Below the pieces are notes generated by a model. It was not told the origin of the DNA. It worked only from the letters and a program-made list of their open reading frames with translations, and searched no databases. A stretch of DNA of 19,954 nt, taken from IMG/VR virus record IMGVR_UViG_2534681899_000007. The stretch is one strand, 5' to 3'. Positions within the stretch are counted from its first letter, which is position 1; every line of letters starts with the position of its first letter. The stretch comes from a virus. Its lineage: Duplodnaviria; Heunggongvirae; Uroviricota; Caudoviricetes. Below, piece after piece: positions 1 through 17,713 of the stretch. The position numbers and the translations under genes were made by a program.

Positions 1-1284
1 TTACTTCTTCGCCTCTGCAACCACTTTACTACCCACGCCGCGGTTATTGTATTCCCACATGCGGTTGTAGTTAGTGTCATTCAGATTGCGCTGTATTTCG
101 TCGTTATCATCTACGCTGCCGGTATTACCCGCAAACGGACGATTAGAGATCACCGCATCGGCCCACGGTTTAGCCGTGTTAAAACCTTCGTTGATGGCGC
201 TATCACGGATCACCACCTGACCGTTGGTATTGGCATCAACATCCAGCGAGCGGCCCAGTTGCGCCACACCATCACCGAAAGCATTGAAACGGCTGTTTAC
301 GGCGAGGAAACCGTAGTAAATGTTGGACAGCGTAGCCGGTGCAAACACATACGCTTCTTGCTGAGTACGTGAGTTCACCACGCGGAATTCGGTGTTATCG
401 AACACCACTGCGCCGCGACCAGAAACGATATCCACATCCCCTTCAATGTAGCTGTTGGTCACCAGCGTACGCGGCTGACGGTTGGTTTCCAGACGGTTCT
501 GCACACCGCTGTTGGTGACAAAGAAGGTGTTCTGACGACCGAGAATGTTAACGTTGTTAATCTGTACCTGGTCACCATCAGTACGCAGTGCCACCGCCGG
601 ATGGTTACCTGCATCTACGCTATCGCCCAGCGTGTTTTCGATGGTCAGATTTTGCAGTTGCAGGCCATTGTTTTGTGACCAGAAGACCGCAGAGCAGAGA
701 ACACCGATACTGTCGCTGCGTTTGCTCTGGCAGCTATCGTACATATACCACGCTGGTTTACCTGGCATATATTTGCCGCGCGGGTTGACGTCGTGACGCC
801 AGTCGGCAGGGCTCATGCCACCATCAAGGGAAAGCCCAATCTTCACATCAATCGGTTTTTCACCTGTACCGTACAGAGTAATTCCACCCGGAGCGGCAGG
901 GACATATACCGTTCCCTGATACTCACCAGGCATCACGGCAATATACTGGCGCTTGTTGGTACGCTTGATAATTGCCGCATCTACCGCCGCCTGAATCGTG
1001 GTATGCGTTACACCTTGAGTGCCCGCCGGGCCGACAACAAAGTCAGGTTGCGCAGGCAGGGTAATCGGGGAAGGATTCCACGCTGCAGCACCTGGTGTCA
1101 GGGATGCAAAATAGTGTTGAGCATCGAAATTCTGCGCTTCTTTTGCCGACAGAATCGGGCGAGAAGAGGTACCAGGCGCGGTTTGATCAGAAGGACGTTG
1201 ATCGGGCGGGGTTGAGCTACAGGCGGTCAGCGTCACGCCAAAAGCCAATGCCAGCGCCAGACGGGAAACTGAAAATGTGTTCAC
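1..1284 (-). CDS. ybhC: YbhC-type outer-membrane lipoprotein (pectinesterase-like acyl-CoA thioesterase family); chromosomal gene flanking attB(lambda)
   Basis: Complete 427-aa ORF with an N-terminal signal peptide and lipobox (LTAC). The sequence is recognised as E. coli YbhC, which lies next to the lambda attachment site in the gal-bio interval. Confidence 0.88.
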   Translation of the reverse strand: MNTFSVSRLALALAFGVTLTACSSTPPDQRPSDQTAPGTSSRPILSAKEAQNFDAQHYFASLTPGAAAWNPSPITLPAQPDFVVGPAGTQGVTHTTIQAAVDAAIIKRTNKRQYIAVMPGEYQGTVYVPAAPGGITLYGTGEKPIDVKIGLSLDGGMSPADWRHDVNPRGKYMPGKPAWYMYDSCQSKRSDSIGVLCSAVFWSQNNGLQLQNLTIENTLGDSVDAGNHPAVALRTDGDQVQINNVNILGRQNTFFVTNSGVQNRLETNRQPRTLVTNSYIEGDVDIVSGRGAVVFDNTEFRVVNSRTQQEAYVFAPATLSNIYYGFLAVNSRFNAFGDGVAQLGRSLDVDANTNGQVVIRDSAINEGFNTAKPWADAVISNRPFAGNTGSVDDNDEIQRNLNDTNYNRMWEYNNRGVGSKVVAEAKK

Positions 1285-1330
1285 AGGTTGCTCCGGGCTA
1301 TGAAATAGAAAAATGAATCCGTTGAAGCCT

Positions 1331-1422
1331 GCTTTTTTATACTAAGTTGGCATTATAAAAAAGCATTGCTTATCAATTTGTTGCAACGAACAGGTCACTA
1401 TCAGTCAAAATAAAATCATTAT
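1331..1422. other. attL (B-O-P'): 15-bp core GCTTTTTTATACTAA (1331-1345) plus P' arm with IHF site and Int arm-type sites
   Basis: Exact lambda core sequence. Bacterial-type B half (CCTGC) lies to the left and phage P' sequence (GTTGGCATTATAAAAAAGCATTGCTTATCAATTTGTTGC) to the right. IHF-like TATCAATTTGTTG is at about 1370-1382; arm-type repeats CAGGTCACTAT, CAGTCAAAAT and AAAATCATTAT are at 1391-1422. Confidence 0.9.
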
Positions 1423-2489
1423 TTGATTTCAATTTTGTCCCACTCCCTGCCTCTGTCATCACGATACTGTGATGCCATGGTGTCCGACTTATGCCCGAGA
1501 AGATGTTGAGCAAATTTATCGCTTATCTGCTTCTCATAGAGTCTTGCAGACAAACTGCGCAACTCGTGAAAGGTTGGCGGATCCCCTTCGAAGGAGAGAC
1601 CTGATGCTTTTCGTGCGCGCATAAAATACCTTGATACTGTGCCGGATGAAAGCGGTTCACGACGAGTAGATGCAATTATGGTTTCTCCGCCAAGAATCTT
1701 TTTGCATTTATCAAGTGTTTCCTTCATTGATATCCCGAGAGCATCAACATGCAATGTTGTTGGGATGGCAATTTTTACTCCTGTTTTGCTTTGCTCGACA
1801 TAAAGATATCCATCTACGATATCAGACCACTTCATTTCGCATAAATCACCAACTCGTTGCCCGGTAACAACAGCCAGTTCCATTGCAAGTCTGAGCCAAC
1901 ATGGTGATGATTCTGCTGCTTGATAAATTTTCAGGTATTCGTCAGCTGTAAGTCTTGATCTCCTTACCTCTGATTTTGCTGCGCGAGTGGCAGCGACCGG
2001 GTTTGTTGTTATATGGCCTTCAGCTATTGCCTCTCGGAATGCATCGCTCAGTGTTGATCTGATTAACTTGGCTGACGCCGCTTTGCCCTCGTCTATGTAT
2101 CCATTGAGCATTGCCGCAATTTCTTTTGTGGTGATGTTTTCAAGTGGAGCATCAGGCAGACCCCTCCTTATTGCTTTAATTTTGCTCATGTAATTTATGA
2201 GTGTCTTCTGCTTGATTCCTCTGCTGGCGAGGATTTTTTCGTAGCGATCAAGCCATGAATGTAACGTAACAGAATTATCACTGTTGATTCTTGCTGTCAG
2301 AGGCTTGTGTTTGTGTCCTGAGAATAACTCAATGTTGGCCTGTATAGCTTCAGTTATTGCTATCCTCCTGTCTCGGCCTAATCCAAACTCTTTACCAGTC
2401 CTTGGGTCCCTGTAGCAGTAATATCCATTGTTTCTTATATAAAGGTTAGGGGGTAAATCCCGGCGCTCATGACTTCGCCTTCTTCCCAT
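1419..2489 (-). CDS. int: Integrase, tyrosine recombinase (lambda Int, essentially identical)
   Basis: 356-aa ORF beginning MGRRRSHERRDLPPNLYIRNNGYYCYRDP and ending RDDRGREWDKIEIK, matching lambda Int as recalled. Its 3' end overlaps the P' arm as in lambda. Confidence 0.97.
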   Translation of the reverse strand: MGRRRSHERRDLPPNLYIRNNGYYCYRDPRTGKEFGLGRDRRIAITEAIQANIELFSGHKHKPLTARINSDNSVTLHSWLDRYEKILASRGIKQKTLINYMSKIKAIRRGLPDAPLENITTKEIAAMLNGYIDEGKAASAKLIRSTLSDAFREAIAEGHITTNPVAATRAAKSEVRRSRLTADEYLKIYQAAESSPCWLRLAMELAVVTGQRVGDLCEMKWSDIVDGYLYVEQSKTGVKIAIPTTLHVDALGISMKETLDKCKKILGGETIIASTRREPLSSGTVSRYFMRARKASGLSFEGDPPTFHELRSLSARLYEKQISDKFAQHLLGHKSDTMASQYRDDRGREWDKIEIK

Positions 2490-2685
2490 TTCTGATCCTC
2501 TTCAAAAGGCTACCTGTTACTGGTCGATTTAAGTCAACCTTTACCGCTGATTCGTGGAACAGATACTCTCTTCCATCCTTAACCGGAGGAGGGAATATCC
2601 TGCATTCGCGCACCCATCGACGAACTGTTTCAAGGCTTCTTGGGCGTCGCTGGCGTGCGTTCCACTCCTGAAGTGTCAAGTACAT
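2467..2685 (-). CDS. xis: Excisionase (lambda Xis)
   Basis: 72-aa ORF MYLTLQEWNARQRRPRSLETVRRWVRECRIFPPPVKDGREY, matching lambda Xis. It overlaps the int start by 23 nt as in lambda. Confidence 0.95.
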   Translation of the reverse strand: MYLTLQEWNARQRRPRSLETVRRWVRECRIFPPPVKDGREYLFHESAVKVDLNRPVTGSLLKRIRNGKKAKS

Positions 2686-2708
2686 CGCAAAGTCTCCGCA
2701 ATTACACG

Positions 2709-2735
2709 CAAGAAAAAACCGCCATCAGGCGGTTT
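2709..2735 (-). terminator. Intrinsic terminator for leftward transcription, upstream of xis
   Basis: On the minus strand: 8-bp GC-rich stem (AAACCGCC / GGCGGTTT) with a 4-nt loop, followed by a T-run (TTTTTTCT). It overlaps the stop codon of the 55-aa ORF. Confidence 0.6.
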
Positions 2736-2892
2736 GGTGTTCTTTCAGTTCTTCAATTCGAATATTGGTTACGTCTGCATGTGCTATCTGCGCCCACAGC
2801 ATCCAGTGGGCATAGCAGTCGTTGATGTCCTCTGCTTCGATAACTCTGTTGAATGGTTCTCCATTCCATTCACCTGTGACTCGGAAGTGCAT
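2725..2892 (-). CDS. Small hypothetical protein (55 aa), not in the supplied ORF track
   Basis: Manually translated: MHFRVTGEWNGEPFNRVIEAEDINDCYAHWMLWAQIAHADVTNIRIEELKEHQTA. A GGAG Shine-Dalgarno lies 7 nt upstream of the ATG and the intrinsic terminator follows immediately. It sits between the accessory operon and xis. Confidence 0.45.
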   Translation of the reverse strand: MHFRVTGEWNGEPFNRVIEAEDINDCYAHWMLWAQIAHADVTNIRIEELKEHQTA

Positions 2893-3050
2893 TTATCATC
2901 TCCATAAAACAAAACCCGCCGTAGCGAGTTCAGATAAAAGAAATCCCCGCGAGTGCGAGGATTGTTATTGTCTTTTCTTCGTGCATTTGTCGCACTTTCG
3001 GCACCATCCAGATAGGCACATCCGTCCGCAATTAACACATATAGGCCACA

Positions 3051-3332
3051 TCATTTCTCCTCTTTTGGTTTATGAATCTGAATGGTCATGCCGCTTTGAG
3101 TGGTGACTACAATGACAGAACCAGGCTGAAGACTGTTAAGATTGAATGCTTCGTAAAACGAATCCAATGCCAGTGCTTTTTTATTCTTTCGGTTCCACCA
3201 ACGCCATCCCCTGCTACAGGCCATGTTGACAATCCACTGCCCACTCCTGTAAGCCATATAAAACCAGATGAGCAAAACCTGAAGGAATGCTATCCAGTCA
3301 ATAATCGTATATTTCGCGAAGGAGTACATCAC
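3051..3332 (-). CDS. Hypothetical protein (93 aa) with an N-terminal hydrophobic segment, probably membrane-anchored
   Basis: ORF in a tightly packed leftward operon; ATGA start/stop overlap with the upstream gene. Hydrophobic stretch IIDWIAFLQVLLIWFYMAY. Confidence 0.55.
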   Translation of the reverse strand: MMYSFAKYTIIDWIAFLQVLLIWFYMAYRSGQWIVNMACSRGWRWWNRKNKKALALDSFYEAFNLNSLQPGSVIVVTTQSGMTIQIHKPKEEK

Positions 3333-3718
3333 TTCACCTCCTGCTGTGGTGCTGCTGGCATTTCACGCCAGTGCGTAACTGAGTGCGGATCCGGATATTC
3401 GGTGCCATCATCCCAGCGATTGCCATTCCACATTGCAGACCACATCTCACCGTCTTCATACATGACCATTACCGGAATTAACTTATCCGGCATTCGCTCA
3501 CTACAGCTTATCCAACCATCCGGAGTTACCGGAGAGTTGCCAGATGGCTCGTTCAACTTGTAAGTTTGGCTTACAGGTTCGGCTTCCAGCGATGCCAGTG
3601 CGATACGAAACACATTGGCAAGCAGGCTGTCTGAAGATTGGTTATCGTGCGCCGGGTCGCTCAGGAAACCAGTGATGAATGATTTAATCTCCGCGCGTTC
3701 TTTGGTAATGGTGGTCAT
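3329..3718 (-). CDS. DUF551-like phage protein (129 aa)
   Basis: C-terminal region DGWISCSERMPDK...VTHWREMPAAP resembles the DUF551 signature common in lambdoid prophage early regions. Operon context supports it. Confidence 0.6.
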   Translation of the reverse strand: MTTITKERAEIKSFITGFLSDPAHDNQSSDSLLANVFRIALASLEAEPVSQTYKLNEPSGNSPVTPDGWISCSERMPDKLIPVMVMYEDGEMWSAMWNGNRWDDGTEYPDPHSVTHWREMPAAPQQEVK

Positions 3719-3719
3719 A

Positions 3720-4019
3720 TCACATCACCCTGAAGCCGTTGCATTTACGTAAGAAATCGCAGATATAGCCCTTCATTTTTTCATGCCAATCTCGATCATT
3801 CCCATTGCACCAACCATCAGGTGGAGTCCAGTTTTCTATCAGAGCAGCCATTTTCTTTGCTTTCGCCGGAGTAGCTGTTGCGGTATCGCAGTAATGACGA
3901 GTGTCAACAAACTTATCCATGCCATCGATATCAAGTACGCAAAACCATGTGTGATTCGGCATTTCAACAGATGGTATTTGTTGCCCACGTCGACGTTTAT
4001 CAATAAGACATACAGTCAT
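3720..4019 (-). CDS. Hypothetical protein (99 aa), Cys/His/Trp-rich
   Basis: ORF tightly packed in the leftward operon; start overlaps the stop of the upstream ORF (ATGA). No family recognised. Confidence 0.5.
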   Translation of the reverse strand: MTVCLIDKRRRGQQIPSVEMPNHTWFCVLDIDGMDKFVDTRHYCDTATATPAKAKKMAALIENWTPPDGWCNGNDRDWHEKMKGYICDFLRKCNGFRVM

Positions 4020-4561
4020 GGTTCCACCTTCTCTATTTGCTTAAGACCGTCTCTCACTGCATTAAGTACGCGTTCCAGATATTGGTATTTCGGGTTTGGT
4101 ATTGTTGGCCAGTTGGCATACCACGGATCATCACCAAAGAGATTCAGTAGTTTGTTACCGACGCCGAAACAGCAGCAGTTTTCTTTTACGTCATCGGCGT
4201 TTTCCGCCTCGTCCCACATTTCGCGAGCCAGTACGGCGTCGATTTCTCTCTCTCTTCGTAACTTTATGATTTCTGACTTCACGAAAAGCAGATTTGCATC
4301 GTTGTCATCGTCGACCGTGCTTAGCAGTTGAGGGTCGAAATTGTCGATTAGATAATCGTTGCTAACTCGCTTAATGAACGTCTGCACATCATCACCGCCC
4401 ATAGCAAACCAAGCCGCTGTCCACGCTTTTCCGTAGCAGGTGATGGTGATTCTTCCCTTTCCATGTTCGTAGTTTTCAATCATCACTCGAACCGGATCTA
4501 GTCGCTCTGCACCGGTTATAACGAATGACAACACATCAATCTTTTCAACCGTTACACTCAC
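4016..4561 (-). CDS. Hypothetical protein (181 aa) with acidic stretches (DDDNDAN, DEAENADD) and a CCC motif
   Basis: Long ORF in the operon frame pattern. No family recognised. The true start may be slightly downstream, as the first 17 nt overlap the upstream gene. Confidence 0.55.
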   Translation of the reverse strand: MSVTVEKIDVLSFVITGAERLDPVRVMIENYEHGKGRITITCYGKAWTAAWFAMGGDDVQTFIKRVSNDYLIDNFDPQLLSTVDDDNDANLLFVKSEIIKLRREREIDAVLAREMWDEAENADDVKENCCCFGVGNKLLNLFGDDPWYANWPTIPNPKYQYLERVLNAVRDGLKQIEKVEP

Positions 4562-4865
4562 TGATTGCCTCCTTTGCTGGGCTTTCTAGCTTCTGAGTGG
4601 TTGTATCAAACTCAAACAACTTAACCACGTCATCAAACAGGACATAATCGCCATCAGAATCTTCAGTCATGTCAGCGCCACAATCCTGACCGCACGAGTC
4701 GCAACCTCCCATATCAAGCTCGTATCGCTTCAGGTTTGCGATATTTGATAAATTCAGCGCCAGTACAGCCAGGTCATAAACCTCTTCGGCGGTATACCCT
4801 GCGCCATGCCCATACATTTCAATGCGGGATATGATTTCTTCTACCCGTTGTTTTGTGATCGTCAT
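4545..4865 (-). CDS. Small highly acidic hypothetical protein (106 aa) with a CxxCxxxC cluster
   Basis: About 22 Asp/Glu versus about 8 Lys/Arg. Cys cluster CDSCGQDC plus a C-terminal Cys. ATGA overlap with the upstream gene. Confidence 0.55.
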   Translation of the reverse strand: MTITKQRVEEIISRIEMYGHGAGYTAEEVYDLAVLALNLSNIANLKRYELDMGGCDSCGQDCGADMTEDSDGDYVLFDDVVKLFEFDTTTQKLESPAKEAISECNG

Positions 4866-5425
4866 TTTTGCTCACCTCCCTGTTCTTCCAGAAAAATACG
4901 CATAGCCTCAAGCATCTCTTCGGTGTCATACGGAGACAGCTTGTCACGCAGGATGTGTTCAATGCTGTTAATGAACTTTCGGATTGCTTTGCGTTCAATT
5001 TCAGTCAGGAAAGCATCGGTGGCTGGGGTGTCTGATTGCATAGACTTTGCGCGATAGTCATTCCACCCTCTTGCATACATGGGATTAACTTGCACTCCAT
5101 CTTTTACGCAATATGCCTGCCCTCCACGGTTGATAACCTTGATTTCGTCCATAGCGCCAGACTTCAGCCCAGCATTCTCCGCCGCCAGCGCCGAAAACTT
5201 CTCGTGAGCCAACTTAACAGCCGCATCAGCCTGCTTAATTGACTCAATCGCTTTCTGGTGGTCTTCGGACAGAGCCGAAATCTTGGCCTCCGCTTCAGCA
5301 AATTTACGCACCAGATATTCAGCGTTTGTTTCGTTAACCTTTAAATCTCGTGGGATGCATTTACCTTTCAGAAATCCATCCATCTCAATTAGTGACATTT
5401 GTTTCATTTCTTCCCACTCCGCCAC
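4862..5425 (-). CDS. Hypothetical protein (187 aa); N-terminal half looks helical/coiled-coil, possibly Ea22-like
   Basis: ORF in operon. Ala/Glu/Lys-rich heptad-like segment ([46 protein letters not shown]). The Ea22-like assignment is a guess. Confidence 0.5.
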
Positions 5426-5601
5426 ATTGCATTCAGATATTTGTTTTGATTTACTGATGGAAAAGAATTTCTCTTAAGCAATTCCTCTCTCGATGGCATT
5501 GGCTTTACGCGTTGGCGAATAATCATTTCTGCCGGAAGAATGCCGGGATTGTATGCAAGTCCTCTCATGGTAAATTCCTCAGTCATTACTGATAGCGCCA
5601 T
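5404..5601 (-). CDS. Small hypothetical protein (65 aa, possibly starting at an internal Met)
   Basis: ORF fills the gap between two operon genes but overlaps both neighbours by about 22 nt. Coding status uncertain. Confidence 0.35.
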
Positions 5602-5875
5602 AGCGTGAGCGGTAATTACGCAGGCGCGGGTCGATATATTCAGGGAAGTGGGTATATGTGGCTTTGCGGAATGGTCGGATTGATGTTTCGTTTATTCGGT
5701 CTTTTTCCTGTTTTTCTGCGAGTTGTATATCGCGTCGGCACTTCCGTTCTTCTTTTGTTTCTGGTGGCAGAGCAAGAAACGCGTCGAGATTATTCTTGAT
5801 ATTTTCCAGCACCTCCGATACGGAATTGCCGGAACAGCGGCGCGGGTCATCCGCACCATACAGAGGCGCTGGCAT
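5579..5875 (-). CDS. Hypothetical protein (98 aa), basic
   Basis: ORF directly downstream of the exonuclease remnant in the same leftward orientation. No family recognised. Confidence 0.5.
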
Positions 5876-5891
5876 GGTTTTCTCCTGTTGA

Positions 5892-6164
5892 TTATTTAGC
5901 TAACTTTTTCCAGATCGCTGAAACGTATTTGGCTTGGTGAATGGCATCATCAAGCGCGTTGTGGCGAGTTCCTTTGAATGACATATCTCGCTTAGGGTCG
6001 AATCCTATTACCTTCCCAAGTTCGACGATTGTTCTTACGTCGCGGTCATTCCACCACTGCCACGGAACTGGCTGCCCTGTCAGCGAATAACTGTTTCGGA
6101 GAATAACGCAGTCAAATGATGCTCCATTCCCCCAAGCCGAAAGCAGACCGCAACGACCTCGCAA
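5892..6164 (-). pseudogene. DnaQ-like (DEDDh) 3'-5' exonuclease, C-terminal fragment (5'-truncated)
   Basis: Contains Exo II-like ([10 protein letters not shown]) and Exo III-like (HNALDDAIHQAKY) motifs, but the Exo I (DxE) region is absent. The upstream part of the ORF overlaps the helicase fragment on the opposite strand. Confidence 0.6.
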
Positions 6165-6553
6165 TTGCTCACATCTCCGGAAGCCTGAAGGCGATGGCGA
6201 AAGACCTGAAAACGCCGGTTATCTCCCTGAGTCAGCTTTCACGCGATGTTGAGAAGCGACCAAACAAACGCCCGACAAACGCAGATTTGCGTGATTCAGG
6301 AAGCATTGAACAGGACGCAGACTCAATCATCATGCTCTATCGGGAAGCTGTATATGACGAGAACAGTAGCGCCGCGCCATTTGCTGAAATCATTGTGACG
6401 AAAAACCGTTTTGGCTCACTTGGTACGGTTTACCAGCGGTTCTGCAACGGACACTTTGTTGCATGTGACCAGGATGAAGCCAGACAGATTTGCACAGCAT
6501 CAAATGCACCCGCTGCACGTGGAAGACGATATGCACAAGGGGCTGACGTATGA
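6116..6553 (+). pseudogene. DnaB-family replicative helicase, C-terminal fragment (5'-truncated)
   Basis: [45 protein letters not shown]...[16 protein letters not shown] matches the C-terminal RecA-like region of DnaB-type helicases (E. coli DnaB: [46 protein letters not shown]). The N-terminal roughly 300 aa are absent; an in-frame stop lies at 6104-6106. Confidence 0.75.
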
Positions 6554-6581
6554 CCGTCTACATCACTGAGATAATAACAGG

Positions 6582-6609
6582 GGCTATTTACACAGTAGCC
6601 CTTTTTTAT
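6582..6609 (+). terminator. Hairpin plus T-run (putative intrinsic terminator) at the helicase/terminase junction
   Basis: GGGCTA...TAGCCC stem followed by TTTTTTATT. Confidence 0.4.
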
Positions 6610-6637
6610 TGGATTAAGAACGAGGGGGATTCCTACG

Positions 6638-7270
6638 ATGGGTAGTGGTCGAATCTTCCAGATACCGGAAGAGACGATTAAGTGTCAGCCGTTCGAGTGT
6701 CCTGATCACTTCTACGTAATTGGTGGGATGGATTTTGGATGGGATCACCCACAGGCGCAGGTTCAGCTTTGGTGGGATAAGGACGCAGACACAATCTACG
6801 TTTCACGCGTGTGGAAGGCGAAAGAAAAAACAGCTGTTCAGGCATGGGGAGCTGTTAAATCATGGGCGCATAAAGTGCCAACCGCATGGCCTCATGACGG
6901 AAACCAGCATGAGAAGGGCGGCGGTGAGCAGCTCAAAGGGCAGTACGCGGACGCTGGTTTTATGATGTTGCAGGAGCATGCGACATGGCCTGATGGCGGT
7001 AACGCTGTGGAGCCTGGAATCACTGAATTGCGCGACATGATGCTTGATGGTCGCTTCAAAGTATTCAACACCTGTGAGCCATTCTTTGAGGAGTTCCGCC
7101 TCTATCACCGTGATGAAAACGGGAAGATCGTCAAGCTTAACGACGACGTGCTATCCGCCGTTCGCTATGCATACATGATGCGCCGCTTCGCCAAAATGAT
7201 GCGCGACATCAAAAAACCAAAAGAGAAAAAGATACCAGCCCCAATCAGGCCCATCGCACGGAGAACTTAA
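6638..7270 (+). pseudogene. Terminase large subunit, C-terminal nuclease-domain fragment (ATPase domain missing)
   Basis: 210-aa ORF with RNase-H-like nuclease-domain features (VIGGMDFGWDHP ... DDVLSAVRYAYMM). Its stop overlaps the portal start (TAAATG), as for P22 genes 2 and 1. An in-frame stop at 6596-6598 leaves no room for the ATPase domain. Confidence 0.7.
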
Positions 7271-8863
7271 ATGGCCGACGAAAACAGACTCAATTCCATT
7301 CTGTGTAAGTTTGACGCGGACTGGATGGCGAGCGATGAAGCCAGAACCGAGGCGACAAATGACCTGTATTTTAGCCGAGTGTCGCAATGGGATGACTGGC
7401 TATCAAACTACACTACCCTGCAATATCGCGGACAATTCGATGTTGTTCGCCCGGTGGTCAGGAAGCTGGTCGCAGAGATGCGCCGTAACCCTATCGACGT
7501 TCTCTTCAGACCAAAAGACGGAGCTAATCCTGATGCTGCCGATGTGTTGATGGGAATGTATCGTACCGATATGCGCCATAACACGGCAAAAATTGCCGTT
7601 AACGTTGGCGTTCGTGAGCAGATAGAGTCCGGCGTTGGTGCATGGCGTCTGGTCACACAGTACGAAGACAACGATCCAACAAGCAACAACCAGGTAATCA
7701 GACGCCTGCCAATCCATGAAGCCTGCTCACACGTCATATGGGACGCCAACAGCAAGCAGATGGATAAGAGCGACGCTAAGCACTGCACGGTGATTAACGC
7801 CTTGTCGCGCAATGGCTGGAAAGAGTTCGCAGAGGATTACGGTATTGATCCGGACACCTTGCCATCTTTCCAGAATCCGAACGATACATGGCTGTTTCCG
7901 TGGGTATCGAATGATGTCGTCTACGTCGCTGAGTATTACGAGGTCGAAGAGAAGAAAGAGAAAGTCTTCATCTACCGCGACCCGCTGACAGGTGAGCCGG
8001 TAAGCTATTACCAGCAGGATATCAAAGACGTCATCGACGACCTGGCTAATCGTGGATTCATTAAGGTAGCAGAGCGCAAGGTGAAGCGTCGGCGTGTGTA
8101 TAAGTCGATCATCACCTGTACGCAGATACTGAAAGACCGCGAGAAGATAGCCGGAGAGCATATTCCAATCGTTCCAGTGTATGGTGAATGGTCATTCGCT
8201 GGTGACAAGGAGTGCTACGAAGGAGTGGTAAGGCTGACGAAAGACGGTCAACGCCTTCGTAACATGATCATGTCGTTCAACGCCGATATTGTTGCTCGTT
8301 CACCGAAGAAGAAACCGACCTTCTTCCCTGAGCAAATCGAAGGCTACGAATACATGTACGGTGGAAATGATGACTATCCGTACTATCTGCAGAACAGGAC
8401 CGATGAAAACGGTAACGACCTGCCGATTGGTCCAATCTCCTACATGGAAAACCCTGAAGTGCCGCAAGCCAACGCTTACATGCTTGAGGCAGCCACCAAC
8501 GCAGTGAAAGAGGTGGCTAGTCTTGGAGTGGATGCGCAGGCGGCAAATGGTCAGGTCGCTTTCGATACCGTCAATCAACTGAACATGCGGGCAGACCTTG
8601 AGACATACGTGTTTCAGGATAACCTGGCTACCGCAATGCGACGTGATGGCGAGATTTATGCCTCAATGGTCAACGATATTTATGACGTTCCTCGCCATGT
8701 AACGCTGACTCTTGAAGACGGAAGCGAGAAAGACGTTCAACTCTACGCGCAAGTTGTAGATTATCCAAACCGTATGCCTGTTGGTAGCGGTAACCAGTTG
8801 GCGAAGTGGAACGGTTGGAATTACTTCCACCGGAAGGAACCTTGCGATAACGGGAGCGAATAA
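7271..8863 (+). CDS. Portal protein (P22 gp1-like), C-terminally shortened or chimeric: 530 aa versus about 725 aa
   Basis: N-terminal roughly 490 aa closely resemble P22 portal as recalled ([18 protein letters not shown]..., [13 protein letters not shown]..., [22 protein letters not shown]...). The last roughly 35 aa do not, and the ORF stops immediately before gp10. Confidence 0.8.
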
Positions 8864-10282
8864 ATGCCGATTCAGCAACTTCCGCTTATGAAAGGTGTCG
8901 GCAAAGACTTTCGAAACGCCGACTATATCGACTATTTGCCAGTGAATATGCTGGCTACACCCAAAGAAATCCTGAACAGCAGCGGATATCTTCGCTCATT
9001 CCCGGGCATTGCCAAACGTTCTGATGTGAACGGTGTATCGCGCGGAGTCGAGTACAACATGGCGCAGAATGCTGTATATCGCGTGTGTGGCGGCAAGCTG
9101 TACAAAGGCGAAAGTGAAGTCGGTGATGTTTCAGGAAGTGGTCGTGTATCAATGGCGCATGGTCGGACATCACAGGCGGTAGGCGTTAATGGTCAACTGG
9201 TCGAGTATCGCTATGATGGCACGGTTAAAACCGTCTCAAACTGGCCTGCAGACAGCGGATTTACGCAGTATGAGTTAGGTTCGGTTCGTGACATTACTCG
9301 CTTACGTGGGCGTTATGCGTGGTCAAAAGACGGCACTGATTCATGGTTTATCACTGACCTTGAAGACGAATCGCATCCTGACCGCTACAGCGCACAATAT
9401 CGCGCAGAATCGCAGCCGGACGGTATCCTCGGCATCGGAACATGGCGAGACTTCATCGTCTGCTTTGGTTCATCGACGATTGAATATTTCTCCCTGACTG
9501 GCGCAACCACCGTTGGTGCTGCTTTGTATGTAGCCCAGCCATCGCTGATGGTGCAGAAAGGCATTGCCGGAACCTACTGCAAAACGCCGTTTGCTGACTC
9601 GTATGCGTTTATCAGCAATCCGGCAACAGGTGCTCCGTCTGTATACATCATCGGCTCCGGTCAGGTATCACCAATCGCCAGCGCGAGCATTGAGAAAATC
9701 CTCCGCTCCTACACTGCTGATGAACTGGCTGATGGCGTGATGGAATCGTTGCGATTTGATGCGCATGAGTTGCTGATTATCCATCTTCCGCGCCATGTTC
9801 TCGTGTACGACGCATCTTCAAGCGCCAATGGTCCGCAATGGTGTGTGCTGAAAACAGGCCTGTATGACGATGTGTACCGCGCTATCGACTTCATTTACGA
9901 AGGCAATCAGATAACGTGCGGAGATAAGCTGGAGTCCGTGACCGGGAAATTGCAGTTCGATATCAGCAGCCAGTACGACAAGCAGCAGGAACACCTGCTG
10001 TTTACTCCGTTGTTCAAAGCGGATAACGCCAGAGTGTTTGACTTTGAGGTTGAATCGTCAACTGGCGTTGCGCAGTATGCTGACCGCCTTTTTCTCTCTG
10101 CAACCACTGACGGCATCAATTACGGGCGTGAGCAGATGATTGAGCAGAATGAACCGTTCGTTTACGACAAACGCGTTTTGTGGAAGCGAGTAGGGCGCAT
10201 CAGGAAAAATGTTGGCTTCAAATTGCGCGTTATCACGAAGTCACCTGTCACTCTGTCTGGCTGCCAGATAAGGATTGAGTAA
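8864..10282 (+). CDS. P22 gp10-like head completion / tail hub protein (472 aa)
   Basis: Full-length ORF recognised as P22 gene 10 product ([16 protein letters not shown]...SGCQIRIE), of the same length. Confidence 0.88.
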
Positions 10283-10983
10283 TGGCGGATTCATCACTGA
10301 ATAATCCTGTCGCGGTTCAGGCTGCGCGCCTTGATGCTTCAATTTTGCCACGCAATATATTCAGCCAGTCTTACCTGCTGTATGTCATAAATCAGGGTGC
10401 TGATGTTGGCGCAATTGCCGGGAAGGCAAATCAGGCTGGTCAGGGCGCTTACGATGCTCAGGTAAAAAACGATGAACAGGACGTCGAACTGGCAGATCAC
10501 GACGCAAGAATCACCGCAAACACAAAAGCGATAAATCTCCTTGAGGTCAGGTTAACAACCGCCGAAGGGAAGATAGTCGTACTACGTAGCGATGTTGATT
10601 ACTTGCTGGATGAGGTTATCGATATTCAGGCGCATCTGGTCACTGTTGACCAAAGACTGGATGGCGTAGAAAGCGATGTATCTGACATTAAGAGTGATTA
10701 CGTATCGAAAACCGTAACCGAATCGCAGTCTCTTGCGTCACCGCTGGATGTAAAAACATCATATTCAGTTGATGGAATTCAGGTTATTGGAGCAAGAAAT
10801 ACCGGATGGACTGCAGCCACAGGTACACCTCTTCTTGGCTCATTCAACGCTAACCAGTCATACACAGTCGGCACTACGTACACACAATCCGAAGTCGCAG
10901 CACTCGCTACAGGTTTGCAGCAGGCGCGGCAGCGTATTCTGGCGCTTGAAACGGCACTTAGATTACATGGGCTGATTGACTGA
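10282..10983 (+). CDS. P22 gp26-like tail needle (233 aa)
   Basis: Length and sequence ([27 protein letters not shown]...; heptad-rich coiled coil) match the P22 tail needle; synteny after gp10. Confidence 0.88.
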
Positions 10984-11438
10984 TGATTACATTCAAACCA
11001 ACGCGAAACATCGACCTGATAGAATCCGTAGGAAATCACCCTGACATTATCGCCGGGAGCAACAACGGTGATGGATACGACTACAAACCTGAATGCCGTT
11101 ACTTTGAGGTTAACGTGCACGGGCAGTTCGGCGGAATTGTTTACTATCAGGAGATTCAGCCGCTGACCTTTGATTGCCACGCCATGTACCTGCCAGAGAT
11201 TCGCGGATTCAGCAAGGAAATTGGGCTGGCGTTCTGGCGATACATTCTGACTAACACCACCGTTCAGTGCGTAACATCGTTCGCTGCACGCAAATTCCGA
11301 CACGGTCAGATGTACTGCGCAATGATTGGCCTTAAGCGTGTAGGAACCATCAAGAAATACTTCAAAGGCGTGGATGACGTGACTTTTTACAGCGCAACAC
11401 GCGAAGAACTAATCGACTTCCTGAATCACGGGAGATAG
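10983..11438 (+). CDS. P22 gp14-like virion assembly protein (151 aa)
   Basis: Position between gp26 and gp7 as in P22; start overlaps the gp26 stop (TGATG). Confidence 0.7.
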   Translation: MITFKPTRNIDLIESVGNHPDIIAGSNNGDGYDYKPECRYFEVNVHGQFGGIVYYQEIQPLTFDCHAMYLPEIRGFSKEIGLAFWRYILTNTTVQCVTSFAARKFRHGQMYCAMIGLKRVGTIKKYFKGVDDVTFYSATREELIDFLNHGR

Positions 11439-11440
11439 CC

Positions 11441-12133
11441 ATGTTATATGCATTTAAGCTGGGCAGAAAACTGCGCGGCGAGGAACCTTATTGCCCTGAA
11501 AAAGGCGGGAAAGGTGGCAGCTCTGATAAAAGCGCAAAGTATGCCGCAGAAGCTCAGAAGTATGCCGCAGACCTGCAAAATCAGCAGTTCAACACCATCA
11601 TGAACAACCTGAAGCCGTTTACTCCTCTGGCTGATAAGTATGTCGGCAGCCTCGAGAACTTATCGTCTCTGGAAGGGCAAGGTCAGGCACTTAACCAGTA
11701 TTACAACTCTCAGCAGTACAAAGATCTTGCTGGTCAGGCTCGTTATCAGAGTCTGGCGGCAGCGGAAGCAACAGGTGGATTAGGTTCCACCGCAACCAGT
11801 AATCAGTTAGCAACAATCGCACCAACGCTAGGTCAGCAATGGCTATCTGGACAAATGAACAATTACAACAACCTGGCAAATATCGGTCTTGGCGCTCTTC
11901 AGGGGCAGGCAAACGCCGGGCAAACATATGCCAACAACATGAGTCAGATTTCACAGCAAAGCGCGGCGCTGGCGGCGGCAAACGCCAACCGACCGTCAGC
12001 ATTGCAGCAGGGTGTTAGTGGTGCTGCATCCGGTGCGCTTTTGGGTGGTGGCATAGCCAGTGCTCTCGAGCTATCAACTCCGTGGGGTGCTGGTATCGGT
12101 GCTGGTCTTGGTCTGCTTGGCTCGTTGTTTTAA
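11441..12133 (+). CDS. P22 gp7-like ejection (DNA transfer) protein
   Basis: 230-aa ORF MLYAFKLGRKLRGEEPYCPEKGGKGG...; Gln/Ala/Gly-rich with a Gly-rich hydrophobic C-terminus, as in P22 gp7. Confidence 0.85.
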   Translation: MLYAFKLGRKLRGEEPYCPEKGGKGGSSDKSAKYAAEAQKYAADLQNQQFNTIMNNLKPFTPLADKYVGSLENLSSLEGQGQALNQYYNSQQYKDLAGQARYQSLAAAEATGGLGSTATSNQLATIAPTLGQQWLSGQMNNYNNLANIGLGALQGQANAGQTYANNMSQISQQSAALAAANANRPSALQQGVSGAASGALLGGGIASALELSTPWGAGIGAGLGLLGSLF

Positions 12134-12143
12134 GGGGTAATCA

Positions 12144-13559
12144 ATGGCTACGTGGCAACAGGGTATTAATTCTGGTGGTTTTCTGGCTGGCATTGGTGCG
12201 CAAAACGAGAATGCGCCAAAGGCAAGCGACATTAACGCAACGCTTGGTCTGATCCGCGAAAACAATGAACTGGCTCGCTCAGGTGCAAATAACGTTGGTC
12301 TGACCGCGTTACGTGGTCTGGCTGGAGTTGCTGATATTTATAAGCAGGAACAGCAACAGAAAGCGATTAGTGCGTTCAATAAGGTTCACGCTGATGCATG
12401 GGCTTCTGGTGATCCATCGGGACTATTTAAGTTTGCCCAGGAAAATCCAGCGTTTGTTGCACAGGCACAACAGGCGTTTTCCGGTCTTAATGAGCAGCAA
12501 CGCAACGATATGGGCGATTTAGCCATGAGGGCTAACGTCGCTCTTTCTCAGGGACCGGAAGCCTACAGTAAATTCATTACTGACAACAAGGACAGGTTAA
12601 ATCGCGTTGGTGCTAATGCTGACTGGATGATTCAGACAGGTATCCAGAATCCAGAGCAGCTATCACACATGCTGACTACTATGTCTCTCGGTGCGCTTGG
12701 GCCAGAAAAGGCGTTTGCTGTTCAGGATAAGATGGCTGGTCGTGAAATTGACCGAGGCAGGCTGGCAGAGACAATCCGCAGCAATCAGGCTGGTGAAGCA
12801 CTTCAGGCGAGAGGGCAAAACCTTTCCTATCAGTCAGCAATGACTGGGCACAATATCGCAGCACAACGCTTGGCTCTGGATCAGCAAGAGTTCGGGTTTA
12901 AGATGCAGCAAGCGCAGGAAAAGGCTCAGCAGTTGATTAGCGAAGCACCTAAGCTGTCAGTAAACATGGAAAAAGGCATCGAGACGGCTGTAAACAATGC
13001 CACAGCATCATCAAACTCAGCCAATTCTATGAGTGCGCTTGCTCAACAGTTCAGAGCAGAAAAACCAACGACAGGTTTGTTCGGTAACGCACAGAACATG
13101 TTCGCAAAACTTACCGGAAGCGATACGACATTGCGTGATTTGCGCATTCGCCAAAATGCCCTTGTTAACAGTCAGGTTCTTAAATTCCTACCTCCCGGCC
13201 CCGCAACGGATAAAGACGTTGAGATCGTTCGTCAGGGTGCACCAACTGACATGGATAACCCTGAGACGGTCGCAAGATGGCTTGATGCTATGGCAAACCT
13301 TGAGCGACGAAACGCGCAGTTTAATGAGTTTAAAGCCGAGTGGATGAGCGCGAATGGCAACCCTGGACAATCGCGTAATGGCGGTCAGATATTGGGGTTG
13401 GATGTTAAAAAAGGTGAATCATTGGGGAGTGCCGTTAAGCGGTATATGTCAATGAATACTGACGCAGCGCCAGCACAAGATTCGACACCTTCAGGAGAAC
13501 CACGGAATCAGGTTGGATCATATACATCAAAATCAGGCATTCAATTTACGGTGGAATGA
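12144..13559 (+). CDS. P22 gp20-like ejection protein (471 aa)
   Basis: Same length and position as P22 gp20. Confidence 0.85.
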
Positions 13560-15397
13560 TGAAAGTAACTGCAAACGGTAAGACATTTACCTTTCCTGAT
13601 GGTACGAGCACCGAAGATATTGGCACCGCCATTGATGAGTATTTTGCTGGTCAGGCTGTTCAGCAACAAACAGTTAATCAGGCCAATAATGCACCAACAC
13701 GGGAAGAACCATCATTGATCCAACAAGCTGGCGATTGGCTCACTGGTGGTCAAAGTGCAGGGCAAATTGCAGAACAGGCTGGTCGTGGTCTGGTAAACAT
13801 ACCATTTGACGTATTGCAGGGCGGCGCAAGTCTGATTAATGCAATCAGTCAGGGGCTTGGTGGACCCAAGGTTTTGGATGATGTTTATCGTCCAGTAGAC
13901 AGACCGACAGACCCCTACGCGCAAGCCGGTGAAACAATTGGTGGGTATTTAGTTCCAGGAGTTGGAACGGCAGGAAGCATGGCTATTGGATCACTGGCAG
14001 AGGCCGCAAATCAGAAAGGCGATTTCGCACAAAATGCAGCTAAAAATGCCGGAGTTAACCTTGCCACTCAGGGTGTTCTTTCCGCAGCAGCAAAGGGAAT
14101 AGGGCGTGGAATAACGGCTATAAAAGGTGATATTGCGCCAGAAGTGGCGAAGAAAATTACCACATCAGAATCGATGGGCGTGACACCAATGACATCTGAT
14201 GTTATCCCGCCGAAAAATGCTTTCACTCGCGGCCTAACTCAGGATGCCGAGGGGGCTTTGCTCGGGACAGGCTCAAAGCGAGCGGAGCAATATGCAACGC
14301 GTAGTAAGCTGGTAAGTAATTATTTTGACCGTTTTGGTGAGTACAACCCTGATGATGTGGTGAAATCTCTTACCACCACGTTAAGGGGGCGGAAGGATGC
14401 CGCTGGCGCTGTTATCAATGACGTCACCAATAAAATGGGTAATGCCGCAGTTGATACCACAAATACCATGAATGCTCTGAATACAGCGATCGCAAGACAG
14501 GAACGGCTTGGGACGTCTGCCAATCAAAGCCTGCTTACATCCTTGCGTAACCTACGTGAAGAATTAGCAAACCCTGCAACTGATTTGGATGTTACGTTTG
14601 ATCTCTTGCGTCAGCACAGAACAGCATTTAGATCTAATGTTCAGGGAGATGCTATGGTCTTCCCCAACCAGGCAAAAGCAGCTACCAATATGGTAGAGAA
14701 TGCAATGTCAAAAGACCTTCGTAACGCAGTTGCTAAAAACCTCGGTGCATCAGACGCAGCAAAATACCTTAAAGCAAATTCCGATTATGCAAACGTTTAT
14801 AATAAGGTGCTTAATAAAAACATTGCTAACAAGCTCAACAAGGCAAGCAGTGAAGCCAGTCCTGAACTTATAAATACCGTTGTATTAAGCAGAAAACCAT
14901 CTGACGTGAAACGAATATGGAGCGCCCTGGATGATAAAGGGAAAGATGCTATGCGTGCAGCTTACGTCAGCAAAATAGCGGAAAAGGCCGGTGACTCTCC
15001 AGCCAAGTTCATCACTGAAGTTAATAAGCTGAAATCTCAGTCAGGCGGTGAAATTTACAACACTATTTTTTCTGGAAAGCACATGAAAGAGCTTGATGCT
15101 CTTCATGAAGTTCTACAGCAAACAGCAAGGTCAGACACCGCAAATGTAGTAACTCAGACGGGGCAATCACAAGCCAACAGGATAAGGACGATTGGCGCAA
15201 CTGCGACTCTTGGTGTATCAATGGGGCTTGAGGCTGGCTTTGGTGCAATGATGCGTTTGTATGAGTCCAAAGCAGCAAGGAATGCTCTCTTACGTCTGGC
15301 AAACACTAAAGCTGGAACGCCAGCCTATGAAAGAGCGTTGAGTAACGCTGCAAATGCCATCAGGCCGCTGCTTGCTACTGAGGCAACACAGCAGTAA
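13556..15397 (+). CDS. P22 gp16-like ejection protein (613 aa)
   Basis: Length and position match P22 gp16; ATGA overlap with gp20. Confidence 0.85.
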
Positions 15398-15421
15398 CGT
15401 ATGGGGAATTGGATTCAATCG

Positions 15422-15811
15422 TTAACATTTTCTTTTTACTTTTCCAACAAAAGCTTTGGTTGAATCCATATTCCCATAACCAGAAATGGTTTTCGACATT
15501 AAAACTGTTCCATTAGGATGTATTACCCATGAGTCGATAACTCGTTGAGTTTCGCCATTCGCGCCGATTCCAATGATGGAGTTTTTAGACAATGCTTTGT
15601 AAGCCATGCCGCCCGCATCCGTCCCAGAATATGTGATACTGGCATCTTCACCGTTTGTCTTAATGATGAATGTTCCACTAAAACCATCTTCTTCCGGTTG
15701 AAAATTATTTCGTTCTGAATAGCTTATTCCGTGCATATCTCCAACGACCCAGCACTCTGCTGAGACAGAAAACGAGAAGACAAGGAAAGCCATTGCTATA
15801 ATCAATTTCAT
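15422..15811 (-). CDS. Small Sec-exported protein (129 aa), beta-rich, Cys near both ends of the mature chain; moron in the mnt operon
   Basis: Signal peptide MKLIIAMAFLVFSFSVSA with cleavage after SVSA. AAGGG Shine-Dalgarno 5 nt upstream of the ATG. AT-rich relative to flanking phage genes. Lies 15 nt downstream of the other moron ORF. Confidence 0.65.
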   Translation of the reverse strand: MKLIIAMAFLVFSFSVSAECWVVGDMHGISYSERNNFQPEEDGFSGTFIIKTNGEDASITYSGTDAGGMAYKALSKNSIIGIGANGETQRVIDSWVIHPNGTVLMSKTISGYGNMDSTKAFVGKVKRKC

Positions 15812-15826
15812 TTTAAGCCCTTATTG

Positions 15827-16162
15827 TTATTGATTCTTTTTGCACGGAAATGTTTTTCCTACTGCTAGGGCGGTTAGTATAACTGCACTCTCATTTCTTG
15901 ATTCTGGGTTTTTGTTTAGATATTTCTCAACGATATCGGTGTATTGATACATGTCAACGCCATCAGGAGGACATAGAGAACCAATTAGTATCAATGAGTC
16001 AGTTACTCCGCGCAAATATCCAGTAATGTAAAGCGATGAAAAATCATCACCCTTTTTACCTTGTTGAATGTTGTAAAGAAGGTCATTACCCGTTTGAAGC
16101 TCGCGCAGCTCAGCACTGGAAGAAGAGACAACTGCTAACAAGAACAGTGATAGAAATCTCAT
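15827..16162 (-). CDS. Small Sec-exported protein (111 aa), probably helical with 2 Cys; possible Rap1a/Tai4-like periplasmic immunity-type fold (tentative)
   Basis: Signal peptide MRFLSLFLLAVVSSSSA. Its start codon overlaps the mnt stop (ATGA) and an AAGGA Shine-Dalgarno lies inside the mnt 3' end. Mature part contains ...GYLRGVTDSL...SLCPPDG...ILTALAVGKTFPC. Confidence 0.65.
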   Translation of the reverse strand: MRFLSLFLLAVVSSSSAELRELQTGNDLLYNIQQGKKGDDFSSLYITGYLRGVTDSLILIGSLCPPDGVDMYQYTDIVEKYLNKNPESRNESAVILTALAVGKTFPCKKNQ

Positions 16163-16413
16163 TTCAAATCCTTTTCATAAATCTTTTTAAGTGTCTCAAA
16201 CACTATAGCCTTGAACTGCTCAGCCTGCTGATCAGCCAAGCGTTCAGCTTCGTCGCGATATCCTGTAATCGGTGATGGTTTTGATAGTGCATCCTGAACG
16301 ATTTGTAATAACTCAGAGTTCATTGACCTTCCGTTAGCCTCGGCTCTTAATTTCAATTTTTCTCTTACTTCCAAAGGCATACGGAAGTTAAAGTGCGGAT
16401 CATCTCTAGCCAT
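16159..16413 (-). CDS. mnt: Mnt repressor (P22 immI maintenance repressor, ribbon-helix-helix)
   Basis: MARDDPHFNFRMPLEVREKLKLRAEANGRSMNSELLQIVQDALSKPSP... is nearly identical to P22 Mnt as recalled. Transcribed divergently from arc/ant. Confidence 0.93.
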   Translation of the reverse strand: MARDDPHFNFRMPLEVREKLKLRAEANGRSMNSELLQIVQDALSKPSPITGYRDEAERLADQQAEQFKAIVFETLKKIYEKDLK

Positions 16414-16435
16414 GCCATCACTCCAAGTTAGTGTA

Positions 16436-16487
16436 TTGACATGATAGAAGCACTCTACTATATTCTCAATAGGTCCACCGTGGACCT
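16436..16487. promoter_or_regulatory. immI control region: Pant (-35 TTGACA 16436-16441, -10 TATATT 16459-16464), Arc operator (16441-16461) and Mnt operator (16471-16487), with divergent Pmnt overlapping
   Basis: ATGATAGAAGCACTCTACTAT matches the P22 arc operator. AGGTCCACCGTGGACCT is a perfect 17-bp palindrome matching the P22 mnt operator. Confidence 0.85.
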
Positions 16488-16503
16488 ATATTGTGAGGTG
16501 AAC

Positions 16504-16665
16504 ATGAAAGGAATGAGCAAAATGCCACAGTTCAATTTGCGGTGGCCTAAAGAAGTATTGGATTTGGTACGCAAGGTGGCGGAAGAAAATGGTCGGTCTG
16601 TTAATTCTGAGATTTATCAGCGAGTAATGGAAAGCTTTAAGAAGGAAGGGCGCATTGGTGCGTAA
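16504..16665 (+). CDS. arc: Arc repressor (53 aa, ribbon-helix-helix)
   Basis: MKGMSKMPQFNLRWPKEVLDLVRKVAEENGRSVNSEIYQRVMESFKKEGRIGA matches P22 Arc. The longer track ORF from 16441 starts inside the operator and is rejected. Confidence 0.93.
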   Translation: MKGMSKMPQFNLRWPKEVLDLVRKVAEENGRSVNSEIYQRVMESFKKEGRIGA

Positions 16666-16667
16666 AG

Positions 16668-16733
16668 TTGAAGCCCCAACTGCTGTAACAGTCAGGGCTT
16701 CGGCATCAACAAATCGGATTAGGAAATATTGAC
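16668..16733 (-). ncRNA. sar: Candidate sar-like antisense RNA covering the ant ribosome-binding site (tentative)
   Basis: P22 encodes a small antisense RNA (sar) across the arc-ant intercistronic region. Here a minus-strand TATACT -10 overlaps the ant start and a GAAGCCC...GGGCTTC hairpin lies at 16666-16702. Confidence 0.35.
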
Positions 16734-17612
16734 ATGAAAAGTATAGCAAAGGCACAAAACGATTTCACCATCTTCAAATTCGGCGACAGTGAAATCCGCG
16801 TCATCAACAAGTGCGGTGAGCCGTGGTTTGTAGCTAAAGATGTTTGTGATGCTTTAGATTTGACTAACTCACGCAAGGCGCTTACTGCACTTGATGACGA
16901 TGAAAAGGGAGTAACTTTAAGTTACACCCTTGGTGGTGAGCAGAATCTAAGCATTGTGAGCGAATCAGGTATGTATACATTGGTTCTGCGCTGCCGCGAT
17001 GCAGTCAATAAAGGTTCAGTCCCGCACAAATTCCGCAAGTGGGTAACAGCAGAAGTTCTGCCTTCAATTCGCAAACATGGCGAGTATGTAAAAGGAAAGA
17101 AAACCACTGTTGAGGAAAGAACACCGCTACGCGATGCAGTAAACATGCTGGTAGGAAAGAAAGGACTTCGCTATGACGATGCATACAATATGGTTCATCA
17201 GCGTTTTGGTATTGACAGCATTGATGAACTTTCAATTGAACAAATCCCGCTGGCCGTAGAGTACATCCACAGGGTAGTGCTTGAAGGTGAGTTCATTGGC
17301 AAACAAGAGAAGAAAACCAACTAGCTTTCTGCAAAAGAAGCAAACAGCCTTGTATGGTTATGGGATTATGCCAACCGCTCACAGGCATTATTCCGCGAAC
17401 TGTATCCGGCGCTAAAACAAATTCAATCGAACTATTCCGGCAGATGCTACGACTACGGTCATGAATTCTCGTATGTTATCGGAATGGCGAGAGACGTTTT
17501 AATAAACCACACACGAGATGTTGATATCAATGAGCCAGACGGACCAACGAATCTTTCCGCATGGATGAGACTTAAGAATAAAGAATTACCTCCTTCAGTA
17601 CATAACTACTGA
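16734..17612 (+). pseudogene. ant: Antirepressor Ant (Bro-N domain) interrupted by an in-frame amber codon at 17322-17324
   Basis: 196-aa N-terminal ORF with a Bro-N-like motif ([16 protein letters not shown]). After the TAG the same frame stays open for 95 further codons to TGA at 17610-17612, giving about 292 codons in total; P22 Ant is about 300 aa. Confidence 0.75.
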
Positions 17613-17630
17613 CAGATAACCAACGCAACG

Positions 17631-17656
17631 ACCCAGCTTCGGCTGGGTTTTTTTAT
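17631..17656 (+). terminator. Intrinsic terminator downstream of the full-length ant frame
   Basis: ACCCAGC-TTCG-GCTGGGT hairpin followed by TTTTTTT. Confidence 0.7.
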
Positions 17657-17713
17657 GCCCAAAATTCACCGTAGCTACGCTGCGGCGATTCCTTGTATCT
17701 GGAGCAAATTAAA

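Follow-up and report, generated by a model that had tools for sequence, protein, structure and literature searches.

Helicase-distal DNA joined to the nuclease domain of the large terminase in a defective P22-like prophage of Escherichia coli: very probably the scar of a single recent 9,629-bp deletion

Results

A decayed P22-like prophage adjoining ybhC

The stretch of DNA analyzed here, referred to as the window, comprises the 19,954 nucleotides of IMG/VR record IMGVR_UViG_2534681899_000007. In Megablast, 16,553 bp of the window align at 100% identity with scaffold KB733082.1 of E. coli assembly GCA_000352485.1, and its three remnant proteins were deposited in GenBank under the E. coli names KTE90 and KTE91. 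At its left end, the window contains ybhC (1–1284, minus strand), which is followed by genes for a lambda-type integrase and an excisionase and by P22-type early-left genes, including that for the anti-RecBCD protein Abc2. Next in order are a helicase remnant, a terminase remnant, a shortened portal gene and the genes for gp10, the tail needle and gp14; the distal part encodes the ejection proteins gp7, gp20 and gp16, an immI-like Mnt/Arc/Ant region and a tailspike. The intact kin of the window, i.e., phages APC_JM3.2 and IME10 and a prophage adjoining ybhC in E. coli E9, are all of the Lederbergvirus type, and the window's prophage is a P22-like (Lederbergvirus-type) element of E. coli that adjoins ybhC. 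Among the genes called in loci of the window type, there is no repressor, replication initiator, Q, holin, endolysin, terS, scaffold or coat gene.

Two features of the distal part are side observations. Between gp16 and mnt lie two leftward cargo-like genes (15422–16162, minus strand), one encoding a 111-aa product with a match to Rap1a immunity protein (E 9.7e-15) and the other a 129-aa product without a Pfam match. The tailspike (17693–19954), whose stop codon is the exact end of the window, has an N-terminus of the P22 head-binding type and, in its receptor-binding part, a weak GDSL-lipase-like match (E 0.0014) that lies under the Pfam cut-off.

A helicase remnant is followed by a terminator-like hairpin

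The ORF at 6116–6553 (plus strand) encodes the 145-aa C-terminal remnant of a prophage DnaB-type replicative helicase and has the native 3' end and stop codon. It matches only model positions 146–247 of the 255 positions of DnaB_C in Pfam (E 4.7e-37) and is collinear with full-length helicase genes, at their 3' end, in two other loci (L004 and L005). At junction 1 (6134–6138), about codon 320 of the helicase (plus strand) is joined to what remains of an Rv2179c-like 3'-5' exonuclease gene, its C-terminal part (5892–6164, minus strand); the two homologies overlap by ∼5 bp, and the position is approximate, the parents used being only 92 to 96% identical.

As the sequence-only reading had stated, 84 bp (6554–6637) separate the helicase stop codon from the next start codon, an ATG at 6638. 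Most of this gap (6554–6628) is native helicase-distal intergenic DNA, and the same sequence follows intact helicase genes both in many IMG/VR contigs and in E. coli BY63 (L005). It contains an intrinsic-terminator-like hairpin (AGGGGCTATT/AGTAGCCCTT) plus T-run at 6579–6609 (plus strand), i.e., on the helicase side, within which lies the hairpin and T-run previously noticed at 6582–6609. The terminator scan that identified this element gives a stem-loop of 10 pairs, four of them GC, with a 5-nt loop (6579–6603), followed by TTTTATT. The hairpin has a fold energy of −15.8 kcal/mol (z = −3.9), and none of 200 shuffled sequences folds as well. A scan of 6400–6800 against Rfam returned no match at E ≤ 1.

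Comparison with intact relatives, proposed earlier as the way to decide which parent had contributed the hairpin, assigns it to the helicase-distal side. First, a hairpin plus T-run is present 25 to 55 nt after the helicase stop codon in undeleted relatives, in E. coli BY63 and in E. coli E9. In BY63, it is followed by an ORF of 70 aa and ninB; in E9, it occupies the same place with another stem sequence. Second, when IMG/VR was scanned using the conserved 3' end of the helicase gene as a pattern, at least 119 contigs (L025–L143) were recovered, nearly all of which have the stem version AGGCCTGC...GCAGGCCT or AGGGGCTATT...AGTAGCCCTT. For both versions, the fold energy is −14 to −17 kcal/mol and a T-run follows; a third, rarer version at the same helicase-distal position has no hairpin. 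Third, across phage contigs, the sequences diverge sharply after the same T-run, and at least five different first nin genes follow it. Thus, the hairpin and T-run derive from the helicase-distal parent, and the element is a recurrent terminator-like feature at a mosaic boundary. The joint to the terminase described below, junction 2, is present in none of the at least 119 IMG/VR contigs.

Only the nuclease domain of the large terminase remains

From 6629 to 7270 (plus strand), the window is collinear with the 3' part of the large-terminase (TerL) gene of locus L021, a near-isogenic relative described below, comprising codons 287 to 499 and the stop codon. Within this segment, the ORF at 6638–7270 (plus strand) opens at Met290 and encodes 210 aa, equivalent to TerL residues 290 to 499, i.e., linker, RNase-H-like nuclease domain and basic tail; in GenBank, its product is annotated as "large terminase". 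The product matches Terminase_6C from model position 1 to 154 of 155 (E 4.7e-29) in Pfam and has no match to the ATPase domain, Terminase_6N, in agreement with the earlier description of a nuclease domain only. It aligns end to end with 4dkw_A, the nuclease fragment of P22 gp2 that has been crystallised (E 1.4e-127), with 83% identity over 208 residues and with the catalytic Asp321 kept. The in-frame stop that had been noted upstream is a TAG at 6596–6598 in the frame of this ORF, and the DNA 5' of 6629 is helicase-distal intergenic sequence. In P22 gp2, the ATPase fold spans residues 38 to 284 and is followed by a flexible linker, the nuclease domain at 313 to 482 and the basic tail at 483 to 499 (PMC11728703). 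From these limits, it follows that the break lies in the interdomain linker and that the ORF contains the whole nuclease domain and tail.

A Shine-Dalgarno-like GAGGGGG is located at 6623–6629 (plus strand), 8 nt 5' of the Met290 ATG, and comes from the 70-aa nin ORF that was deleted here. In the left parent, the sequence is GAGGGGGATCCTGATGG, whose ATG opens the 70-aa ORF; in the window, it is GAGGGGGATTCCTACGATGG. We predict that GAGGGGG is a working ribosome-binding site.

In exact-protein look-ups, the exact 210-aa protein occurs outside this clone only as contig-end truncations of full genes. Similarly, among the named members examined of its 90%-identity cluster, all complete proteins are 499 aa long, and any shorter entry is partial or truncated. 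In all other loci, the sequence 5' of Met290 is ordinary TerL; locus L008 is a contig end within a full gene. Three unrelated short contigs (L009, L010 and L012) share a position 1 that is one base before the Met290 ATG. We considered and rejected these starts as a recombination or mosaic boundary. They probably reflect retrieval bias on randomly broken contigs, because an exact-protein look-up returns only contig-end fragments that start in that codon.

Directly after the TerL remnant, an adjacency as in intact phages, lies the portal gene (7271–8863, plus strand; 530 aa), which at junction 3 continues in frame into the 3' end of gene 4. In Pfam, P22_portal covers residues 12 to 492 of the fusion, and a weak P22_Tail-4 match covers residues 500 to 524. 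The portal-side homology to L004 ends at about 8763, and the gp4-side homology begins at 8761. Junction 3 (8761–8763) joins about residue 498 of the portal to the last ∼30 codons of gene 4; it has a TTA-type microhomology and cost ∼3.5 kb, comprising the portal 3' end, scaffold, coat, a small ORF and most of gene 4.

A near-isogenic relative retains the missing DNA

Near-identical loci that occupy the same chromosomal site as the window were retrieved by exact look-ups of its own remnant proteins. One of these, from GCA_965255455.1 (L021/L016), retains everything from the helicase end through the terminase. It is identical to the left 6,630 bp of the window (1–6630) and has one mismatch in the 12,238 bp of 6626–18863. 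In L021, both flanks are on a single contig, in the same prophage and at the same chromosomal site, and this locus also has the 145-aa helicase remnant of junction 1 and the 530-aa portal fusion of junction 3. Because L021 is nearly identical to the window and its interval is uninterrupted, we consider it to represent the ancestral state.

This comparison shows directly where each flank comes from, where exactly the junction lies, which genes were deleted and where the deletion falls in time relative to junctions 1 and 3. Identity on the left reaches window position 6630 (L021 10515), and identity on the right begins at window position 6629 (L021 20143), so that junction 2 falls at 6629–6630 (plus strand) in a 2-bp microhomology, AT, common to both parents. 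The left parent reads ...GAACGAGGGGGAT / CCTGATGGACACC..., the right parent ...GCTCGCGGTAT / TCCTACGATGGGTAG... and the window ...GAACGAGGGGGATTCCTACGATGGGTAG.... Absent from the window is L021 10516–20144, i.e., 9,629 bp removed as one deletion. The left break lies just past the terminator-like hairpin and separates the ribosome-binding site of the small first nin-region ORF from its start codon. The right break is in TerL codon 287, with L021 20143 as its first base, in a gene that starts at L021 19285; this is the breakpoint residue that an alignment had been expected to define. Ile287-Pro288-Thr289 sit before Met290, which is now the opening codon of the ORF.

In L021, the first part of the interval encodes the 70-aa ORF, ninB, dam, ninE/X/F/G/H, a phosphatase and a Q-type antiterminator; the second part encodes holin, endolysin, Rz, rha, DUF551, DUF2560, terS and the 499-aa TerL. 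The same gene order is found in a more distant intact prophage. All the functions that the sequence-only reading had expected between these genes (nin region, late antiterminator, lysis and small terminase) are therefore present in the undeleted interval. With the deletion, the prophage lost its nin region and Q-type antiterminator, its late-promoter region and lysis cassette, rha, terS and the ATPase domain of TerL. As previously proposed, the element can neither lyse nor package, since no lysis, terS or Terminase_6N gene is left in the window. Specifically, a GP3_package (terS) gene is absent from loci of the window type and present in L013, L016, L017 and L021. The 70-aa ORF, located between the helicase terminator and ninB, encodes a Cys-rich product (MDTVNGMCSDAPRAKKCKCGKSP...) and is found at L005 1806–2018 and at L021 10520–10732; it was called in the contig collection but has no RefSeq annotation for E. 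coli BY63.

The existence of a 210-aa ORF annotated as a large terminase is the sole support for a natural split terminase, in which a nuclease-only protein is normal and its ATPase partner is encoded elsewhere in the element. The sequence-only reading had named such a family as the finding that would speak against a deletion. However, no Terminase_6N gene is present anywhere in loci of the window type, codon 287 is preceded by helicase-distal intergenic DNA with an in-frame stop, and the same nucleotides (1 mismatch in 12.2 kb, 99.99% identity) are codons 287 to 499 within the full 499-aa TerL gene of sister strains. A split terminase has, therefore, a vanishingly small probability.

P22-like prophages are mosaic, and a mosaic boundary lies just after the hairpin; this is what could be expected if the joint were a chimera formed by recombination of two different prophages, or an assembly artefact. 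However, the junction sequence is present in several NCBI assemblies (L006, L014 and L020; proteins ELG43159.1, ELH35294.1 and ELJ84446.1) and in two separate read-set assemblies, SRR633666 (L007) and ERR13865498 (L011), and in the near-isogenic relative a single contig holds the two flanks, within the same prophage and at the same chromosomal site. We conclude that an artefact or chimera is extremely unlikely. Outside this clone, the 42-nt junction has no exact match in the contigs of GTDB species-representative genomes, and none of 5,426 complete RefSeq E. coli genomes contains ≥80% of window 6100–7400 in one place. RefSeq E. coli proteins named "terminase large subunit domain-containing protein" were considered as further truncations and rejected; they are products of full-length genes with a generic PGAP name. 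No evidence contrary to the deletion itself was found.

Junction 2 is the youngest of three junctions

Loci L016, L017, L021 and L024 encode the full 499-aa TerL together with the helicase remnant of 145 aa, the portal fusion of 530 aa or both. Junctions 1 and 3 are common to all of the near-identical loci. Because junctions 1 and 3 are carried by loci in which the interval is intact, junction 2 is the youngest of the three. The earlier proposal of a second large deletion is, therefore, borne out by L021 as far as a large deletion is concerned, while "second" holds in map order only.

The sister strains also carry other deletions in the same region. Allele A is a 3,118-bp deletion (L021 15673–18790) with the microhomology CAA, found in L019, L013, L018 and L023; allele B is a 4,355-bp deletion (L021 15033–19387) with the microhomology TAT, found in L022 and L015, and leaves a TerL of 441 aa. 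Holin, endolysin and Rz are gone in all three late-region deletions (3,118, 4,355 and 9,629 bp). Two additional deletions further downstream, in the gp10-needle-gp7 region (L016 13306–14531 and 11785–14575), have TA at each junction. The deletion in the window encloses both smaller sister alleles and may have arisen from a smaller allele instead of from the fully intact state; because the extents are nested, the structures alone are no proof of independent origin. Nevertheless, the window keeps the needle-to-gp7 region that is lost in both sister alleles and, thus, is not descended from either of them as now seen.

All five deletions that were mapped against near-isogenic sequence have a microhomology of 2 to 3 bp (AT, CAA, TAT, TA and TA). 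We calculate the chance of ≥2 bp at a random junction as ∼0.16 and that of five out of five as ∼1e-4 if the events are independent. Because a single 2-bp microhomology is not significant (∼16%), the class of mechanism is assigned from the five-junction pattern, which fits RecA-independent, microhomology-associated illegitimate recombination.

The orphan ORF is most likely an inert remnant

A consensus scan of 5400–7400 found no sigma-70-like promoter on either strand, and the terminator-like hairpin lies ∼20 nt upstream of the ribosome-binding site. Moreover, no repressor, cro, N-type antiterminator or replication-initiator gene was called in loci of the window type; together with the structure of junction 1, this suggests that PR, PL and the N-type antiterminator are gone. 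When isolated, the nuclease domain of P22 TerL reportedly fails to cleave DNA (PMC5389665). The 210-aa ORF is, by prediction, most likely an inert remnant that is silent or nearly so and functionless. The flanks differ from those of the intact relative by 0 to 1 substitutions in 19 kb; the deletion is, therefore, too recent for the intact ORF to say anything about selection.

The opposite idea is that the deletion created, or was retained for creating, an exapted stand-alone nuclease-domain protein, possibly a decoy for the terS product or portal of superinfecting phages. What is left of the gene would suit such a role: the ORF is intact with Asp321 and the entire C-terminal tail, GAGGGGG precedes its ATG by 8 nt, and the break falls in a flexible linker, so that the remaining domain, which matches 4dkw, should fold. 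However, the recent age of the deletion deprives this intactness of weight, a terminator-like hairpin lies directly upstream with no promoter-like site found in 5400–7400, and the isolated domain is without DNA cleavage in P22 (PMC5389665). Equally, the sister strains have the full TerL gene or a truncation elsewhere (441 aa), and the exact 210-aa protein is otherwise known only from contig-end truncations of full genes. Based on these considerations, exaptation is very unlikely. In its specific form, read-through transcription could yield a free nuclease domain plus basic C-terminal tail that interferes with the packaging motor of superinfecting P22-like phages, a proposal to which we give little credence. 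If it were true, the scar would be a newly born anti-phage decoy that titrates the small terminase or portal of such phages.

Discussion

Here, we describe positions 6554–7270 of the window as, almost certainly, the scar of one recent 9,629-bp deletion by illegitimate recombination in an already defective P22-like prophage of an E. coli clone. In this deletion, the gap separating ribosome-binding site and start codon of the first nin ORF was joined to TerL codon 287 at the 2-bp AT, and the internal Met290 by chance came to lie 8 nt past the orphaned ribosome-binding site. The repressor, cro, N, the replication initiator, most of the helicase, the scaffold and the coat were lost before junction 2 arose. 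Thus, the prophage was dead before junction 2, with neither an immunity and replication region nor genes for scaffold and coat. In a prophage in this state, selection may have favoured the loss of a lysis cassette that was no longer repressed. Altogether, the locus is a case of ordinary prophage decay, and the kind of feature is already known.

Two implications follow from the locus. First, the "large terminase" and "replicative DNA helicase" entries of the KTE strains are remnants of a dead prophage, which is a point for their annotation. Second, the near-isogenic strains, in which the interval is intact or lacks 3.1, 4.4 or 9.6 kb, form a natural decay series that is usable for measuring the speed and mechanism of prophage erosion and that could show whether an unrepressed lysis cassette undergoes selective purging.

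Several known systems resemble parts of this locus. The position of the hairpin, at the start of the nin region, is one that we take to be that of lambda tR2. As with tR2, a GC-rich hairpin plus T-run lies between the replication genes and the nin genes in many relatives; however, the terminator-like element of the window differs in sequence from tR2 and now precedes the terminase remnant rather than nin genes. The 210-aa ORF is a near-exact counterpart of the P22 gp2 fragment 4DKW, covering residues 290 to 499 of a 499-aa gp2-type TerL. The P22 nuclease fragment was reportedly obtained experimentally from the full-length protein by Roy & Cingolani in 2012; in contrast, the fragment in the window is the product of a genomic deletion and is without an ATPase domain or terS.

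An unrelated P22-like prophage in E. coli KD602 (L002 12200–12250, NZ_CM145715.1) also lacks the nin genes, the lysis genes and most of terS, its helicase gene directly adjoining the packaging region. However, this is another prophage, with another integrase at another site; its breaks are inside the helicase and ∼30 nt before the TerL start, and its TerL is complete. In KD602, where the nin-lysis-terS block was lost independently, the truncated helicase gene abuts the final ∼30 nt of terS. That KD602 has a deletion of its own indicates that such losses recur.

Finally, the cryptic or grounded lambdoid prophages of E. coli (DLP12, Rac, Qin and e14) have, like the window, lost immunity, replication, lysis and packaging functions through internal deletions that left remnants behind. 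Grounded prophages have a strong tendency to delete useless or harmful genes (PMC6379469). The prophage in the window differs from DLP12, Rac, Qin and e14 in being P22-like, confined to one near-clonal lineage and very young (0 to 1 substitutions), and also in that its ancestral sequence and alternative deletion alleles persist in sister strains.
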